A stretch of DNA of 64,000 nt from Octopus vulgaris. Lineage: Eukaryota. Location: the NCBI GenBank assembly GCA_951406725.2, contig OX597814.1:111848001-111912000 (forward strand), in the 5' to 3' direction. How positions within the stretch are numbered: the first letter of the stretch is position 1; each line of letters begins with the position of its first letter. Position numbers and translations under genes: made by a program. Below the pieces are notes generated by a model. The model worked only from the letters and a program-made list of their open reading frames with translations, searched no databases and was not told the origin of the DNA. Shown piece after piece: positions 41,688 to 51,946 of this stretch.

Positions 41688-42800
41688 GGACTAAACATGC
41701 TGTAGCTAATGATGCATTGGCACGCGCTGAGACTGCAACATCTCCAACGCTTTCGTAACGATGAGCAGGTGCGGTCGCCGTTTATCACACAGGATTTTCC
41801 GCAGCTCGTTTCATTGATGGAACTACAGTCCTGGATCAAGTGTAGGCCAAGAAAGTGTGCTTGACACTTGGAGTGTCGGCAAGTACCCACAGCTCTCTGC
41901 CAGTCTGACAACGCAGTTGTGTTCCACTATGGAGTTCTATAGGGGATTGGTAGCGGGAAAGAGCGACGGCGTCCTCGGGAAACTCTTGACATCGGGAGGT
42001 ATCAATTAACTGGTCTTTTCCGGAGGACTTTGCGGCCGGGGCCTATGGATAACTTTCAGCAATCCCTGGCTTGACAATGCTATCGGGGAGCTCTGCCAGT
42101 TCGAGACAAGCTCTACAGAGACGGAAGTGCTGTCAGACTGACCTGTCCAAGATGTGCACAGGGCGACAAAACCGTCCTGCATGCACTCGTCCAATATCCG
42201 TGCATTACTGACTTGCGGAGCTTTGTCAGACAGCTGTTATCACATGTAGAACGGATCCGTTTATCAGCCGAGTCCATCGTGAAGATCACCCCGCCACCTT
42301 CCTTTGGCCGGGAAGGAAAGGCAGTTTACTTCTGTCTGTGGGCTATGGAGAAGGATGTAGTGTGCTGGACGAGAGTGAAAGTGGCTGAAGAGAGATACTT
42401 TCCTCTTCGACCAAGCCCTCATCGACTTTTTCAAGTTCCACTTGAAAAGGAAACTGTGAGTAGAGAGGGTAGTTCAGCCTCCCAGTAAATTTTCTGAAAG
42501 GTGGGTGACGCCCGTGTGAATGGGCCTACTCTGAACTTTCATTTGTAAACCGGAGGAGTTAAGAAGAGAGGCGCTTGCTGAGGTGCACTTGGCGGTCGGA
42601 ATAACCAGGATGTGTAGGGTTCCTCGGTTGTTATCGTGAGGAACCCCACCCTTCTAGGGAATTTTTATTGCTCAATTGTTTTGTTAATTGTTTTTATTGT
42701 TTTATTGTATACACGAAATTGCTCAACACCCAAAGTGTCCCTTGCATTGTATTGTCCCTATTTGTTTTGTGTTCGGACCATGTGGTCAATAAAAAAATCA
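41688..42800 (+). mobile_element. Tx1/L1-like LINE 3' fragment, second family
   Basis: Peptides HALRLQHLQRF, FYRGLV, PMDNFQQSLA, CPRCAQGDKTVLHALVQ and LSAESIVKITPPPSFGREG are homologous to the copy at 46550. It ends in caataaaaaaa followed by (TAT)n. Confidence 0.75.
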
Positions 42801-42824
42801 TTATTATTTATGTTGTTGTTGTTG

Positions 42825-42888
<64 letters not shown>

Positions 42889-43016
42889 CATTATTATCAT
42901 TATTATCATTATTATCATTATTATCATTATTATCATTATTATCATTATTATTATTATTATTATCATTATTATCATTATTATCATTATTATCATTATTATC
43001 ATTATTATCATTATTA

Positions 43017-43086
<70 letters not shown>

Positions 43087-43121
43087 CATTATTATCATTA
43101 TTATCATTATTATCATTATTA

Positions 43122-43167
<46 letters not shown>

Positions 43168-43220
43168 CATTATTATCATTATTATCATTATTATCATTAT
43201 TATCATTATTATCATTATTA

Positions 43221-43278
<58 letters not shown>

Positions 43279-43439
43279 CATTATTATCATTATTATCATT
43301 ATTATCATTATTATCATTATTATCATTATTATCATTATTATCATTATTATTATTATTATCATTATTATTATTATTATCATTATTATCATTATTATCATTA
43401 TTATCATTATTATCATTATTATCATTATTATTATTATTA

Positions 43440-43503
<64 letters not shown>

Positions 43504-43538
43504 CATTATTATCATTATTATCATTATTATCATTATTA

Positions 43539-43575
<37 letters not shown>

Positions 43576-43628
43576 CATTATTATCATTATTATCATTATT
43601 ATCATTATTATCATTATTATTATTATTA

Positions 43629-43680
<52 letters not shown>

Positions 43681-43730
43681 CATTATTATCATTATTATTA
43701 TTATTATCATTATTATCATTATTATCATTA

Positions 43731-43785
<55 letters not shown>
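42800..43785. repeat. ~1-kb (TAT)n tract with recurring TCATTATTA units
   Basis: Seen directly. Confidence 0.97.
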
Positions 43786-44294
43786 GAGTGAGAGAGCAGT
43801 GCATGCCATCAAAGTGACACTGGGGTAAAATATACGAAGCCCAATATACCCATCATGACTACCTGTCTGATAAAGGTACACCAGGCACATGCATCACAAC
43901 CATATGTGCGCGACATGGTGATCTCATATCAAGATAAACAGCACATGACCTTGCAGGTGGGGCCCAGTTAGAATGTTCTTCAGGTTGAGTAGCCCATCCC
44001 GCTCAAAAGGTCCCTGAATAAGGGTTGTTTAAGGATGTTGAAAGAACCACCCATGTTTCCAGAGGTGAATTATTCAAACCCCAAAGAATCCCTCTCAACA
44101 CATGGCTATGATGCTCCCCCACTACTTCTGCTCGTGATCAGTGATGCACATATCGTCAGCCACTAAGGGACATGCTCAACTGGTTAAGGTCAAACAACTG
44201 ACAAGAAAATCTGTGGTATTGAGCAGAATATTTGCTGTAGCCCATCTTTTATACCAAGACAAAACAATGTACATGATAACACTTCCAATCAGTT
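43786..44294. mobile_element. Unclassified ~510-bp non-coding insertion in (TAT)n
   Basis: High-complexity block with sharp (TAT)n boundaries on both sides; no ORF or TIR seen. Confidence 0.5.
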
Positions 44295-44444: not shown

Positions 44445-44811
44445 TTAAGACGGTGGGCTGGCAGATCAGTTAGTGCATCGGGCAAAATGCTTTGCAGCAT
44501 TTTCCAGGTTATTTATATTTTGACTTCAAAACTTGCTGAGGTCAACTTTGCCTTTCATTCTTTCGGGATCGATAAAACAAGTACCTGTCAGGTGCTTTGA
44601 GACTTGACTGGTATAAAGGCATAAAGCCAACAATCTCGAGGGGTGGGCCTCAGTCGATACGGAAAATGAAAACTTCGCGAGAAAGCTTACATTTGAAGCT
44701 GAAATTAAATATACGAAAGCATTAAAAAAAGAAGAAAAAGGAACGCTTTCTTTCATACAAGATACTCTACTGAATGAATACTGAGATATAAGGAAAATAA
44801 TAATTACTTTA

Positions 44812-45007
44812 ATGCAGTTCTATATTTAAGAGATGAGGAATTATTTTCATTATTTGCATTATTTACATTTGACAGATATTTGTCCTCATCTTGTTTGTTG
44901 TTAACACAACGTTTCGGCTGATATACCCTCCAGCCTTCATCAGGTGTCTTGGGGAAATTTCGAACCAGGGTATACTAAGGTATTTTTCGATGTTGTTGTT
45001 GTTGTTG

Positions 45008-45046
<39 letters not shown>

Positions 45047-45117
45047 TCACTGCCTGGAATCGAACTCGGAATCTTGGGGTTAGTAGCCCGCGCTTTTAAC
45101 CACTACACCATATGCCC
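44812..45117 (-). mobile_element. tRNA-headed, HHR-tailed SINE-like unit (left arm of a palindromic dimer)
   Basis: Minus strand: GGGCATA TGGTGTAGTGGT (A box)...GAGTTCGATTCC (B box), then (AAT)n(AAC)n, a body, the HHR and an AT-rich tail. Confidence 0.75.
44903..44948 (-). ncRNA. Minimal type I hammerhead ribozyme motif, intact core
   Basis: GACAC CUGAUGA A GGCUG-loop-CAGCC GAAAC GUU | GUGUU. A palindromic AACGUU replaces stem III, as in minimal PLE HHRs. Confidence 0.78.
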
Positions 45118-45123
45118 GTGAGC

Positions 45124-45197
<74 letters not shown>

Positions 45198-45203
45198 TTA
45201 ATA

Positions 45204-45263
<60 letters not shown>

Positions 45264-46052
45264 TCCCAGCAATGGTTGAGAAGCTCAGGACTCAAAGCAG
45301 AGACAGATGGATTTTAATTGCAGCACAAGACCAAAGCCTCCCCACCAGAAATTACCAAAAACATGTAATGAAAAGAAATATAACAAGTAACTGCAGAATA
45401 TGTGGAGATGGACAAGAAACAATAAATCATATTATCTCTGGCTGCCCAGTCCTGGCTAAGAAGGAATATATTCACAGACACGATAGAGTTGGGACCTACA
45501 TACACTGGAAGCTATGCCAACATTAGGAAGGAAAACAACAGAAAAAAGATGGTATAGGCACACACCAGAAAAGGTCACAGAAAACGAGAAAGCAACCATA
45601 CTCTGGGACATGCCAATACACACAGATAGAGAAATTAAAGCCAACAGACCAGATATAGTTGTCAGAGATCTTGAAGAAAAAAAAATGCTTTCTAATTGAT
45701 GTATCAATACCGGTAGATGACAACGTGTCTCTAAAAGAAATGGAGAAACTTTCAAAATACAAAGACCTGGAAATAGAAGTAACTAGAATGTGGAATCTAA
45801 AAACAGAAACAATTCCTAACATAATAGACGCATTAAGTATGATAAAAAAATATTCAGACAAATACATAACAAAAACACCAGGACTTACAAACACATATAA
45901 CATACAGAAAATTGCACTACTAGGCACTGCACACATCCTACGCAGAACACAGTAACCATCAGAGCATCACAGCAAACCACAGCACATACCCAAGGCACAC
46001 AGAGCTGCGCTCGGTAGTGAAGTGAAAGCACGCTATAAAAATAAAGCTACTG
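45264..46052 (+). mobile_element. Dong/R4-type RLE LINE 3' fragment inserted in (AAT)n
   Basis: Peptides IAAQDQSL, CCHC finger CRICGDGQETINHIISGC, RHD, RPDIV, LIDVSIP, KLSKYKDL; (AAT)n on both sides. Confidence 0.9.
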
Positions 46053-46056
46053 AATG

Positions 46057-46092
<36 letters not shown>

Positions 46093-46095
46093 TCA

Positions 46096-46135
<40 letters not shown>

Positions 46136-46151
46136 TAGTAATAATAATAAC

Positions 46152-46240
<89 letters not shown>

Positions 46241-46258
46241 CAACAACAACAACAACAA

Positions 46259-46405
46259 CATCGAAAAATAACTTAGGAATGAGAACCCAGGTTCGAAATT
46301 TCCCCAAGACGCTTGATGAAGGCTGGAGGGTATATCAGCTGAAATGTGTTAACAACAAACAAGATGAGGACAAATATCCGTCAAATTTAAATAATATAAA
46401 TAATT
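46259..46405 (+). mobile_element. Right arm of the HHR-tailed unit, with a mutated HHR (46308-46350)
   Basis: Reverse complement of about 44840-44992. The core reads UUGAUGA...GAAAU GUGUU (C3U, and CGU deleted). Confidence 0.8.
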
Positions 46406-46426
46406 ACTTTACTTGTGATAATGGTA

Positions 46427-46549: not shown

Positions 46550-47526
46550 AAGCGACTTCAGTACAACCAAAGTATTCTATAGGGGATTAGTGGAGGGGAG
46601 GTACGACGACAATCTCGGGGTGAACCTGGGCATCGACAAGGAATTCCTGACCCGCCTGTTCAAGACGACTTTCGGGCTGCAACCTATGGACAACTTCCAG
46701 AGATCCCTGGCCTGGCAATTCTATCGAGAAGCGCTACCCGTTCGGTATAAGCTCTACAGGCATGGCTTGAGAAACACGGGGCCGACCTGTCCGAGATGGG
46801 GTCAGAGCGACGAAACCATTGTGCACACACTCGTACAGTGTCCAATCATTTCCGACTTGTGTGCCTACTGTATGTCGAACGACTGCTATCGCGTGTGGGA
46901 CGAGTCAGTTTATCAACCGAGTCTATTGTGAATATTGTCGCGCCTCCTTCCTTGAAACGGGAAGGAAGAGCCATGTTCATCGTACTTGTGGCTATGGCGA
47001 AAGAATGTGTATGGTGGACGCGTCTGAAAGGTCTAGAGACAAACACTTTGCTCTCTGATGGATCTCTCATCAACTTCTTCAAGTATCACTTGAAGAGGAA
47101 GGTGAGAGCAGAGAGGGAAGTTTTGTCTAGCGAATGTTTAAAAAAGATGGGTGAATGTAGCAAGGATGGCACGTGTGATTGACGAAGCCACCTTGAGCAT
47201 AATCCAGTGAACCAAAACAAAAAAGAAAGGAAAAAAGAGTCACGTACTGTAATGCGTTTTTTTTGCATGACATTATTGCCCAAGGTTACCGTGACCTTTT
47301 CCGTATGCTTTTCTTTCTACGGATAAACCTAATCTGTTTCCCCTTTTTACATTATGACATTTCTGTGATACATGATCCCTATTGATCAGCTTTTTTTTTA
47401 ACGATCCCTTTTGATCGAATTTCTATCACCACTTTTCTTTTTTTTCCGTTCTCTTCTCAAAAAGAAAAGCTCTACTTTGTATTTTGTCCCCTTTGTGTTC
47501 AGCCCTGTGTGGCCAATAAAGAAACA
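46550..47526 (+). mobile_element. Tx1/L1-like LINE 3' fragment
   Basis: zf-RVT-like region FQRSLAWQFYREALPVR...CPRWGQSDETIVHTLVQC, then WWTRLKGL; ends aataaagaaaca plus a short ctat-like tail. Confidence 0.8.
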
Positions 47527-47949: not shown

Positions 47950-50900
47950 AGGGAAAAAACGTTCGGAGATAAAACTATCAACAAAAAAATACAGACGAAT
48001 ACATATCTACTAGCCTTAAGAAGCTGCGCTACGAGCAATGCTTACGTGTAGAGAACCCTAAACTGACAGATCCATCTCCTAATGTAAGAGTGGAAGCTCG
48101 TCATGCTTCAATGTCAACAAACCAAACTACAAACCGCATTGGTCGTCGCGCGGATTACAAAAGACCACGTACCCGAAAATTGAACCAAATTCTGATTGAA
48201 AAATCAGCTACTGGATCAAATCTTCCCAACACACAGGAGCTGGACGTACCCCACAACCGGAATATTCCAACAGATTGCCATCCATGCTCGTTACCAAATA
48301 ATCAAAAGAAAAAGAAGGAAAAATGGTCTAGGGAAGATAATAAAGAAGTTCTGGCGGCCTTCTACCATGCCATATATTTCCCCACAGATAAATCTAATAC
48401 TGTACAAACCTACTTAAACTGGAGACAGAAACACCCTGAAGTAAGACCCTACATAGACAGTAACAAACTTGCCAACGTCAGAAGAAACATTATGAAAAAA
48501 AAAATTACTGACTGAAGTAGAGATTGATCAAGTTAGACAAGCAGTATCGGATAAAATGAACGAAGCTGCAGCTAGAGAAGATAATACAGAGGAAATAATT
48601 ATAGACCAGCCCAGGGCTGATAAAAACGAAGTAAGGATTGAAAGAGTTAGTATAAGTGATAGGCTAAGTGAAATACTCTCTGAACCAATCATAAACATTA
48701 AGACAGATGAACATCAAATAGATAAAGAAAGTCAAACAAATATTGACCTAACAGAAAATCAAATCATGATTGAATGGCTGAAAATTAAAGAAACCAGCAT
48801 GGATGAACGCGATACACTCCCTAAAATCCGCAACTCTAACCAAAACATGAAAATAATTGGTAAAATCCGGCTTGCACTTAAGGATATAATTTCAGCTAAT
48901 GATGTTGATATCACAAATGTCAACCACCTATACTATGCATCCGCGAAAATCTCAACGATCCTATGCGGTGTAAAGATTAGAAAACGGCAACATTCCCACA
49001 AAAAGCCTTCTTGGCAAGAGCGTTTGCAACAACAAATTAAACTATTTAGATCTGACACTGAATATTTGAAAAACCTTAAGGTTCCCAAGACTACCAAACC
49101 TACAAAAACCCCAAAATTAATGAAAAAATACAATATGAAAACTATACTTGATATTGATGCCACCATAGAAACCATCAAACAAAAGGTATCTGCCAAAGCT
49201 GCCCGCATAGCGAGGTATGAAAAGCGTGTTAGATCTTTCAAGGACAACAACATGTTCAAAAATAACCCCAAGAATTTTTACAGGAAGATAGGAAAAACAG
49301 CAGTTACTGTAAGGGCTGTACCATCAAAAGAAGAAGTGCAGGGATTTTGGAATAAAATTTGGGCAGAAGAAAAAACACACAACGAAAAGGCCCCCTGGAT
49401 TGACAGAATATCTACAGAACTGGACTCTTTAGAAGAGCAAAAGTGGGAGGATGTCAAGGTAGACGATATAAGATCTGCTCTCAGGAGGTCAAGCAAATGG
49501 AAGTCTCCAGGAAAGGATAAAATTCCTAACTTCTGGCTGAATGCCTTCCCAGAGAGCCATGAACTGCTAACAGAACTGTACAATGATGTTTTGCAACATC
49601 CCTAGTAGGATGCCTCCTTGGCTAGTTAATGGGTTAACATTCCTGCTTCCAAAAAGTGAAGAAACAAATGAACCAAAAAACTATAGACCCATAACCTGCT
49701 TAACAACTACGTATAAAACGCTAACATCTGTCCTGAGGAATATACTTATATACGGAATATACTTATAGTTTTTTAACAGACAGCAGCATATTCCCTAATG
49801 AACAGAAAGAATGTAAACGTGGATCCTACGGCTGTAAAGATCAACTACTCATCAATAAGATGATCTTAGAAGATTGTCACAAACGACACAAAAACTTATC
49901 AATAGCCTGGATAGACTATAAAAAGGTTTTTGATAGCCTACCACATAGCTAGATTAGGAAATGCCTGGAAATGTATAAGATACCACCTACTCTGCGAAAC
50001 TTTTTGACTGTAAGTATGAGATCATGGAGAACCACACTAACTCTGAACAGTAACAATGACTCCCTAAATGCTGGTGATGTAAAAATTTCATGTGACATTT
50101 TCCAGGGTGACTCACTGTCACCACTCTTTTGTTTAGCCTTAATTCCTCTCTCAAAACTGCTCAACGACGCACAGTACGGGTATAAAATGTTTGATAAAAA
50201 TATGAATCATCTCATTTACATGGATGATTTAAAGCTTTTTGCAAAAAATGACCAACAACTCAAGGGCTTACTAGCGAGAATGCAATTTGGCCTCGATAAA
50301 TGTGCAAAAGCTACCTTTATCAAAGGAAAAATGACAGAAACATCTAACGCTAACCTTGACCAGCAGAATGTCATAAAAGAACTAGACCTAGCGGAGAGCT
50401 ACAAGTACCTAGGGGTAATTGAAGGGGACGGAATAAGGCATTCAGAGATGAAGGAAAGGATCAGGAGAGAATGTTATCGAAGAGTGAGAGCAATACTCAA
50501 GACGGAGCTGAATGGAAGAAACAGGATCGAATCGATCAATGCATTAGCCATACCAGTCGTGACTTACAGTTTCAATATCGTTAACTGGTCAATTACTGAA
50601 ATATGTCAGCTTGACAGAAAGATACGAAAACTGTTGACAATGCATAGAATACACCACCCTAAGGCAGATACAGAACGACTTTATCTGCCAAGAAAAGAGG
50701 GAGGCCGTGGTCTTTTGCAACTGGCAATAACAATGAAGATTGCTACAATTGGCCTAGACACCTACCTGAAAAAATCTGAGGTCTGGATGTTAAAACTTGT
50801 CTCAAAACATGAAAACAAGAAAGCATCATACTCAGTAACAAAACAGGCAAAGGAATATCTAAGTGAATTCCGAATACAACAAATTTCGGAATTAGAGATA

Positions 50901-51946
50901 GACATACAAGAAACAAGCACAGAAAAAGCTAAGCGCATGAAAACCCGTGCCAAAACTGCGGCCTTAGATATTCTGAATAATAAATGGCAAGAAAAACCTC
51001 TCTATGGCAAATACCCAAAGAGAGTGAATAATGCAGATATTGACAAAGCCCTGACCTATCAATGGCTAATGGCCTCTGGTTTAAAATCTGAAACAGAAGG
51101 GTTTATCATAGCAGCTCAAGATCAATGCCTACCAACAAGAAACTACCAGGCCAACATATTAAAGAACGGCAGTAGCCCAACATGTCGTGTATGTCGACAA
51201 CAAAATGAAACCATTGATCATGTTGTCTCCAAATGCAGTCTTCTAGCGCCTACAGAGTACCTCAACAGGCATGATAGAGCTGCACAATATATTCACTGGG
51301 TAATTTGCAAAAACCTGGATTTGCCCCATGAAAAAAACTGGTGAGAACACAATCCACCTCCAGTGCTTGAAAATGACCACATCTCACTCCTCTGGAACTT
51401 CACCATTCAAACTGACAGAAAGATAGATGCAAATAGGCCAGACATCATATTGAAAGACTTCAGACAAAGAACATGCCTCCTCATTGATATGACTGTCCCA
51501 ATCAATATAAACGTATCTGTCAAGACCTACCAAAAACTGAGCAAATATAAAGATCTTGAAATAGAAATCAGCAAAATGTGGAACCTGAAGACTAAAACAA
51601 TACCTGTTGTCATAGGTGCCCTGGGAATGATAGCGAAAGGGGCTGATTGCTACTTAACTTAGATACCAGGAAACCCCAAAACGGCAGAAATTCAAAAGAT
51701 AGTGCTCATGGGAACTGCTCATATCCTACGCAAAATACTCTCTATGTAATCCCAAGGTTTAAAACAACGTTTTTTTTAAAAATTTATTTATTAGACATTC
51801 ACTAGTACAACACCAAAAAAAAAAAAAAATATATATATGGCACACTAGGCAAACAATAACGTGAATATCCAACCTGTTGTCTCTTGAGGTCTCTGGGTGA
51901 GACTTGGGGCCAATTTGTACAAACATAAAGCAAAAGTCAAACATAG
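47950..51946 (+). mobile_element. Near full-length Dong/R4-clade LINE (RT + restriction-like endonuclease)
   Basis: Single degraded ORF; preceded by (AAT)n(AAG)n and followed by (AAT)n. Confidence 0.93.
48103..51749 (+). pseudogene. Dong/R4 polyprotein with several stops and frameshifts
   Basis: RT motifs: [54 protein letters not shown] finger CRVCRQQNETIDHVVSKC. RLE motifs: RHD, RPDII...LID...KLSKY. Confidence 0.92.

Follow-up and report, generated by a model that had tools for sequence, protein, structure and literature searches.

What kind of element places a tRNA-like head at one end of a hammerhead-bearing repeat, and by whose machinery were two copies of that repeat inserted head to head? 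The window, that is, the whole 64,000-nt stretch of Octopus vulgaris DNA analysed here, contains such a pair, which a preliminary description had read as a palindromic dimer of a non-autonomous, self-cleaving element, either a SINE moved by the machinery of Penelope-like elements (PLEs) or a Pol III retrozyme. Our analysis assigns it a different parentage: it is near certain that the unit made of head, linker, hammerhead and tail is of PLE origin: the genome contains an autonomous Penelope/Poseidon-type element, whose 3' end (pLTR) it forms. The window holds a head-to-head insertion of this pLTR, and we consider it moderately likely that most short copies of the family come from a Pol III transcript started at the head and inserted by the protein of the element.

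The minus arm (45117-44813) reads as a tRNA-like head, a linker, a body with GGTTCGAA, a hammerhead and a tail (Table 1). One C>T change at a CpG is found in the A box of its head (45110-45100), the B box lies at 45065-45056, and the hammerhead consists of stem I, CUGAUGA, an unpaired A, a 5-bp stem II, GAAAC-GUU and the palindromic AACGUU. In the plus arm, 8 nt of head are followed by (AAT)n, a LINE piece, (AAT)n(AAC)n and the body, and the hammerhead carries C3>U and a change in stem II and has lost 3 nt at the cleavage triplet. A 13-bp direct repeat is present at both flanks. The head was called from its boxes and from alignment to the genome's own tRNAs, and the hammerhead by motif reading; an Rfam search gave 7 weak matches, none of them to tRNA or hammerhead, and ARAGORN found no tRNA genes.

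All the sequence parts named in the preliminary description are present where it had placed them, as judged by sequence reading, and its account of the plus arm holds for the mutated hammerhead and the LINE in the linker; the supposed loss of the head probably does not, this arm having most likely been without a full head from the start. Likewise, inverted arms with a target-site duplication (TSD) are confirmed, but the dimer is not a special one: it is the standard PLE product, in which a full arm is joined through an 8-nt fold-back to a second arm starting in the linker.

Table 1. Positions of the parts of the head-to-head insertion in the window.
Feature	Position	Strand	Basis
Target-site duplication, left copy, 13 bp	44799..44811	+	sequence; family-wide TSD test
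PLE tail, ~33-nt extension, long arm only; runs on into the ORF in tandem copies	44813..44846	-	
pLTR part 3' of hammerhead, in frame with the PLE ORF N-terminus	44847..44902	-	tblastn of P0005 to L100, L116, L027
Minimal type I hammerhead motif, core intact, stem III palindromic	44903..44948	-	sequence; minimal-hammerhead description in the available text of PMC4209133
Predicted hammerhead cut site, after GUU	44908	-	motif reading
pLTR body 5' of hammerhead; 5-nt deletion here over the family's in-frame ATG	44949..44991	-	alignment
(AAT)10(AAC)7 microsatellite linker	44992..45042	-	sequence
tRNA-derived head, +1 = 45117, broken acceptor stem; adjoins the ORF end in autonomous copies	45043..45117	-	tRNA alignment
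Palindromic inversion centre, ATATGCCC-GT-GAGCATAT, 8-nt fold-back of head start; the family's 5'-end hotspot	45110..45127	.	
Plus-arm (AAT)n linker, left part	45126..45264	+	sequence
5'-truncated REL-type LINE 3' end, later insertion in linker	45265..46052	+	
Plus-arm (AAT)n(AAC)n linker, right part	46053..46258	+	sequence
Plus-arm pLTR body, short 3' end without tail; mutated hammerhead at 46308-46350	46259..46398	+	alignment
Target-site duplication, right copy	46399..46411	+	sequence

When the 2.8-Gb genome (227 contigs) is searched with a 32-mer of the hammerhead, 2,214 exact matches are obtained, versus none for the reversed control, and the unit is therefore not a chance motif. Since the same 32-mer is exact in only 3 of 51 unselected arms, these figures suggest that the arms number in the tens of thousands, within a wide margin of error. 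Head-bearing arms amount to about 9,000 by a hand count (an exact head match stands beside 10 of 43 ORF-side matches), and genome-wide pattern matches number 2,187 for the head versus 673 for the ORF side, with patterns of unequal strictness. The position-ordered sample comprises the first 90 of at least 100 hammerhead matches along contig 1, leaving out three same-locus partners, the window and the last six, together with 30 matches of a second haplotype; removal of 13 duplicates left 107 insertions. For the first 30 loci of each set the flank spans only 1.5 kb and the junctions are BLAST ends, accurate to a few bases. Some near-identical insertions with common flanks (L245, L247, L248, L088/L089, L080/L087) are segmental or assembly duplicates.

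The case for an autonomous parent begins upstream of the head, where 7 of 30 head-selected loci share further sequence that translates to a GIY-YIG-type C-terminus and where a walk further upstream arrives at a reverse transcriptase (RT; RVT_1, E=1.4e-10, Pfam). The element so delineated is about 2.7 kb long and carries an RT + GIY-YIG-type ORF; two loci, L100 and L116, are near full length and repeat the hammerhead and tail upstream of the ORF, as a 5' pLTR in tandem, and the copies examined are degenerate, at about 90% identity to one another. Conversely, head sequence lies directly 3' of the ORF in 29 of 30 ORF-selected loci (BLAST or sequence reading), and the tail follows the head downstream, on the same strand, in 24 of 30 head-selected loci. 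The expectations that head and hammerhead would co-occur in other copies and that a PLE sharing hammerhead and tail would exist in the genome are thereby borne out; the idea of a separate SINE with a borrowed PLE tail is not, given that the whole unit, head included, is the autonomous pLTR; no diagnostic SINE-only subfamily withstood the comparisons described below.

All 18 protein homologs, which share 27-69% identity with the ORF, carry PF26215. Pfam gave no GIY-YIG match on two natural pieces; the motif VYSIPCSCG..YKGET..R..EH..H can be read in translation, and one of the 18 homologs, P0015 (27% identity, 97% coverage), bears GIY-YIG PF01541, and a search of PDB sequences returned no match. 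Because no Zn-finger linker between RT and endonuclease (EN), the mark of Neptune and Nematis, is visible in the translations, we provisionally place the family, from its sequence, in the EN+ Penelope/Poseidon clade. A different PLE family, which we take to be Neptune-like, was encountered at L273:857-3550; its frame stays open for 898 aa, the strand is rich in C, and a Cys-rich linker precedes the endonuclease. It has at least 8 similar copies without stops in the match and is probably young.

The start of the octopus ORF shares its reading frame with the hammerhead and tail, and this stretch aligns to P0005 (37% over residues 18-175, E=1e-29, tblastn). In P0005, a distant PLE protein whose RT/EN part is 54% identical, the hammerhead-shaped peptide recurs at the N-terminus (residues 18-33), which indicates that the in-frame hammerhead is older than the octopus family. 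A small intron in the tail was also considered and rejected: it is absent among the 15 RNA-seq joints listed (of 119), the loci contain no spliced junction, and the intron is superfluous because the unspliced frame matches P0005. One joint, L100:503-549, skips 45 nt with GT..AG ends in antisense to the PLE ORF (54 reads, all three runs) and points to a deletion variant in the genome or to an embedded antisense copy that is spliced.

The manner of insertion is equally that of a PLE. An inverted arm is present in 66 of the 107 position-ordered insertions, and in 52 of 59 inverted insertions a long 3' end is paired with a short one; TSDs of at least 8 bp occur at 32 of these 59 versus 4.9% of 3,422 mismatched control pairs, and measure 8-15 bp in the family. 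Inverted pairs with TSDs are hence the rule, as the preliminary description had anticipated, and the ends are those of PLEs, long or short and mostly in inverted pairs, rather than the simple-repeat or poly(A) tails of a LINE-type insertion. The available text of earlier PLE reports lists inverted pLTRs, tails, junction palindromes, 8-10 bp TSDs and overlap with the ORF as PLE traits (PMC8557442, PMC3846280, PMC4209133). Among 102 unique head-to-head insertions, the arms are concordant at three non-CpG markers but not at most CpG sites; at one such non-CpG marker, discordant arms number 7 of 76 versus 25.8 expected. Because the arms agree at non-CpG markers, both arms are usually templated by one source lineage, and two independent RNA templates per insertion are ruled out for most copies.

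A more difficult matter is why so many copies end where they do. The head, the first 75 nt of the pLTR, keeps intact A and B boxes and has an unpaired acceptor stem; when it was aligned to 11 of the genome's tRNAs, of 7 types, overall z was 5.7-6.9 for Arg and Ala. The best match is Arg-TCG (47/75, z 6.9), followed by Ala (6.1) and Arg-TCT (5.8), and because these scores lie close together a donor is not singled out; no donor SINE was found in 973 kb of sampled DNA, where other SINE heads reach at most 17 bits against this head. Elsewhere, at L216, 7 tRNA genes or pseudogenes, for the most part Cys, lie together within 3 kb. Scored by the end of the longest arm, the 107 insertions divide into 25 that stop short of the head, 14 that stop in it, 49 that stop at -19..+5 of the tRNA +1, and 19 that extend into the ORF. 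Ends at -19..+5 hence account for 49 of the 68 insertions that reach +5, versus 4.2 expected from a background loss of 0.22-0.27% per nt on both sides, applied to this 24-nt interval. The ORF is still attached in about a quarter of the head-reaching copies and about 70% start at the head. The family shows two marks of a SINE, namely a tRNA-related head with A and B boxes and short, non-coding copies with a defined 5' end at that head. Such a pile-up of 5' ends at the tRNA head is what a Pol III template predicts, and on this ground we favour, with some confidence, a Pol III origin of the short template.

The main rival to this interpretation, possible though on balance unlikely, is that the short copies are ordinary 5'-truncated PLE copies made from long Pol II templates, that the hairpin at the junction stops RT, folds it back or opens at its loop, and that the head was picked up a single time in the 3' UTR and is carried along as a passenger. 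The ORF-head junction of the autonomous element is indeed an imperfect palindrome (-9.5 kcal/mol) centred exactly on the peak; it is among the strongest local hairpins, only 1 of 775 ORF windows being equally stable, and many ends fall in its loop. By eye, some copies start at -7 with a short fold-back, and the fold-back centres recur among copies; moreover, short and ORF-linked copies have haplotypes in common, and pLTR 5'-end palindromes without a tRNA are known in rotifer PLEs, as described in the accessible part of PMC3846280. Against a role of hairpin strength as such, stem II of the hammerhead (-8.1 kcal/mol) ends only 3 of 55 unselected arms versus 21 of 27 for the head start (p=2e-11), and many other copies begin, again by eye, at -2..+2 with unrelated sequence upstream and no fold-back. 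The intact A and B boxes likewise speak against a mere passenger.

A further point concerns terminators. Runs of T4 are missing from the short unit, and over 2.5 kb of the element (copies piled on L116, median depth 36) the sense strand has no T4 run present in at least 30% of copies, versus 30 such A4 runs; this lack of common T4 runs is not what the hairpin and long Pol II templates would lead one to expect. Per copy, T4 occurs 0.44 times per kb versus about 1.8 after shuffling and 3.2 in the window LINE of the same base composition, and one other PLE family shows no depletion (7 observed versus 5.7 shuffled), these controls consisting of one PLE family and one LINE since 5 of the 6 sampled loci belonged to the same family. 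Base shuffling shows this depletion to be modest (P about 0.01), and it is not significant when synonymous codons are shuffled in three natural ORF pieces (P 0.14-0.76).

Transcript data add to the case for the hairpin only as a weak test. Three raw-read RNA-seq runs yielded 30,199 reads on L100, about equally from both strands, with 71-76% continuing into unrelated sequence, as is expected of copies embedded in other transcripts; among the end clusters listed, none lies at +1 or at the hammerhead cut, these being cDNA libraries sampled at 6% of each run against a reference with a shortened head, so that an RNA start at the head was not seen in them.

The clustering of ends around the tRNA +1 would also suit a tRNA-like head that serves as a processing signal, with RNase P or another nuclease cutting long PLE RNA near +1 to release the short template. 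We consider this very improbable, considering that the acceptor stem is unpaired and that roughly half the peak falls 3-8 nt upstream of +1.

Somewhat less improbable, yet still poorly compatible with the data, is an independent SINE family that derives from the pLTR and spreads from its own master copies. Several copies do have a short ATATGCCC-type leader unlike the autonomous junction, as if palindromic copies were masters, and divergence is slightly lower in the short copies than in the ORF-linked ones (4.6% versus 6.0%, in samples chosen differently). After correction, however, none of 245 columns splits short from ORF-linked copies (best p=0.002). The one candidate marker, the CUGAAGA haplotype (0/49 versus 20/68), had seemed missing from ORF-linked copies, as in a SINE-only subfamily, until a targeted search found it there, in 6 of 18 new insertions scored ORF-linked.

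Finally, the Pol III retrozyme of the preliminary description, in which tandem monomers are cut by the hammerhead and circularised, has in its favour an intact minimal hammerhead and the precedent of Schistosoma SMalpha (available text of PMC6765202). It must nonetheless be abandoned as exceedingly improbable: tandem tails occur in only 2 of the 107 position-ordered insertions (L130, L256), and the copies run uncut across the cleavage site and stop 40-95 nt beyond it rather than at it. Energy folding of the hammerhead gives a fold other than the active one, and hammerhead cleavage is probably unnecessary for copying the short unit.

With a Pol III template, the life of a short copy can be tentatively pictured as follows. 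Pol III would initiate at about -8..+2 and read through the unit free of T4 terminators; the PLE protein would bind the uncleaved short RNA in trans and cut both target strands; two internal sites would serve as starts of reverse transcription, whence the long and the short end; and the palindrome around +1 would help the two cDNAs to join, close to their 3' ends, into an inverted structure. This picture draws on the Poseidon protein of the anole, PAc, which according to the available text of PMC11167929 cleaves both strands in vitro, uses two internal RT starts bounding the tail and can dispense with hammerhead cleavage. A bolder version, in which the autonomous element is itself a Pol III retrotransposon, the head of the upstream pLTR giving a 2.7-kb T4-free transcript and the 3' pLTRs giving SINE-like RNAs, appears to us quite unlikely; were it true, the in-frame hammerhead would govern the translation of an uncapped RNA, and the element would be an intermediate showing the origin of PLE-dependent SINEs such as SMalpha.

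The LINE fragment in the plus-arm linker is a 5'-truncated 3' end of roughly 790 bp (zf-RVT, E=5.9e-6, Pfam), which in the window copy would have entered the (AAT)n linker after the pair was formed. The preliminary description called it a Dong insertion; a REL-type LINE does sit in the linker, and the name stands as a label only, the fragment being presumably Dong/R4-like to judge from its REL-type C-terminus and (TAA)n target. Similar sequence lies in or beside the PLE unit at L039, L096 and L106. More generally, the (AAT)n linker is hit recurrently by other repeats (L039, L046, L065, L068, L078, L106, L115), and the linkers at L046, L065, L068 and L115 have a second repeat of ~500-600 bp in common. 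Elsewhere in the window, a longer degenerate REL-type LINE with RVT_1 and zf-RVT occupies 48496-51662 (+) and, at 48% identity over 77 aa to the linker fragment, represents a distinct family related to that of the fragment; at 42075-42488 and 46580-47182 (+) lie two pieces of the C-terminus of another non-LTR element, with a C..C..H zinc motif, which we assume to be L1/Tx1-like; and ~1 kb of (ATT/ATC)n microsatellite at 42800-43790 is a source of long spurious ORFs.

SINEs are usually paired with LINEs. Should the short template be made by Pol III, the octopus family would be a PLE with its own tRNA-derived promoter and roughly ten thousand or more short copies, which would connect PLEs with Pol III SINEs and provide hammerhead SINE-like repeats with a candidate parent. 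If instead the hairpin explains the short copies, the element is a PLE of the ordinary kind, odd only in its 3' UTR, and its copies are liable to be mis-annotated as SINEs. The family is in addition a large natural dataset on how PLE inverted insertions form, offering a 5' end that is fixed, 3' ends of two kinds, TSDs and arms that agree in their markers.

How, then, does the family compare with known systems? The tRNA-derived head recalls the octopus SINEs OK, OR1 and OR2, reportedly tRNA-derived according to Ohshima and Okada 1994, which were compared by description only. Full-text literature searches yielded neither a PLE with a tRNA-derived pLTR head nor an octopus hammerhead family among the papers listed or consulted; a consensus of the family may already stand in a collection such as Repbase, Dfam, SINEBase or the published octopus library, perhaps labelled SINE or Penelope. 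Cassandra, Helenus and Ajax (PMC10886601, in its available text) also hold a small-RNA-derived sequence within the terminal repeat, but they are non-autonomous LTR elements, whereas the octopus element is a PLE with the head on the autonomous element itself. Non-LTR retrozymes (PMC7229834; bioRxiv 10.64898/2026.07.22.740005) and non-autonomous Chlamys such as MRC1 (PMC8557442) are non-coding relatives of PLE pLTRs, yet they are characterised by head-to-tail arrays and circular RNA, and the available portions of these sources describe no tRNA-derived promoter. In the non-coding SMalpha and Sjalpha of Schistosoma a type I hammerhead likewise comes after a Pol III promoter, but these repeats form tandem multimers cut to monomers, whereas the octopus unit is dispersed, inverted, uncut and partly ORF-linked; it has an autonomous partner, and none is given for them in the available text (PMC6765202, PMC8490949).

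The closest likeness is to the EN+ Penelope/Poseidon PLEs, exemplified by PAc of Anolis (PMC11167929) and Pen1-6 of Adineta (PMC3846280; see also PMC8557442), which in the parts of these reports available have the same RT followed by a C-terminal GIY-YIG-type domain, of which the octopus family shows a candidate by its motif, the same minimal-hammerhead pLTR overlapping the ORF start in tandem or inverted arrangement, a 30-40 bp tail on one end, an 8-10 bp TSD and a palindromic inverted junction. Their pLTRs are described there with Pol II-type promoter motifs, whereas that of the octopus begins with an A/B-box tRNA head. What is unusual is that the ORF is immediately followed by this tRNA-derived head, its A and B boxes intact, the remaining traits being known for PLEs; on present evidence, the family is a PLE variant with SINE-like short copies rather than a SINE family or a retrozyme.
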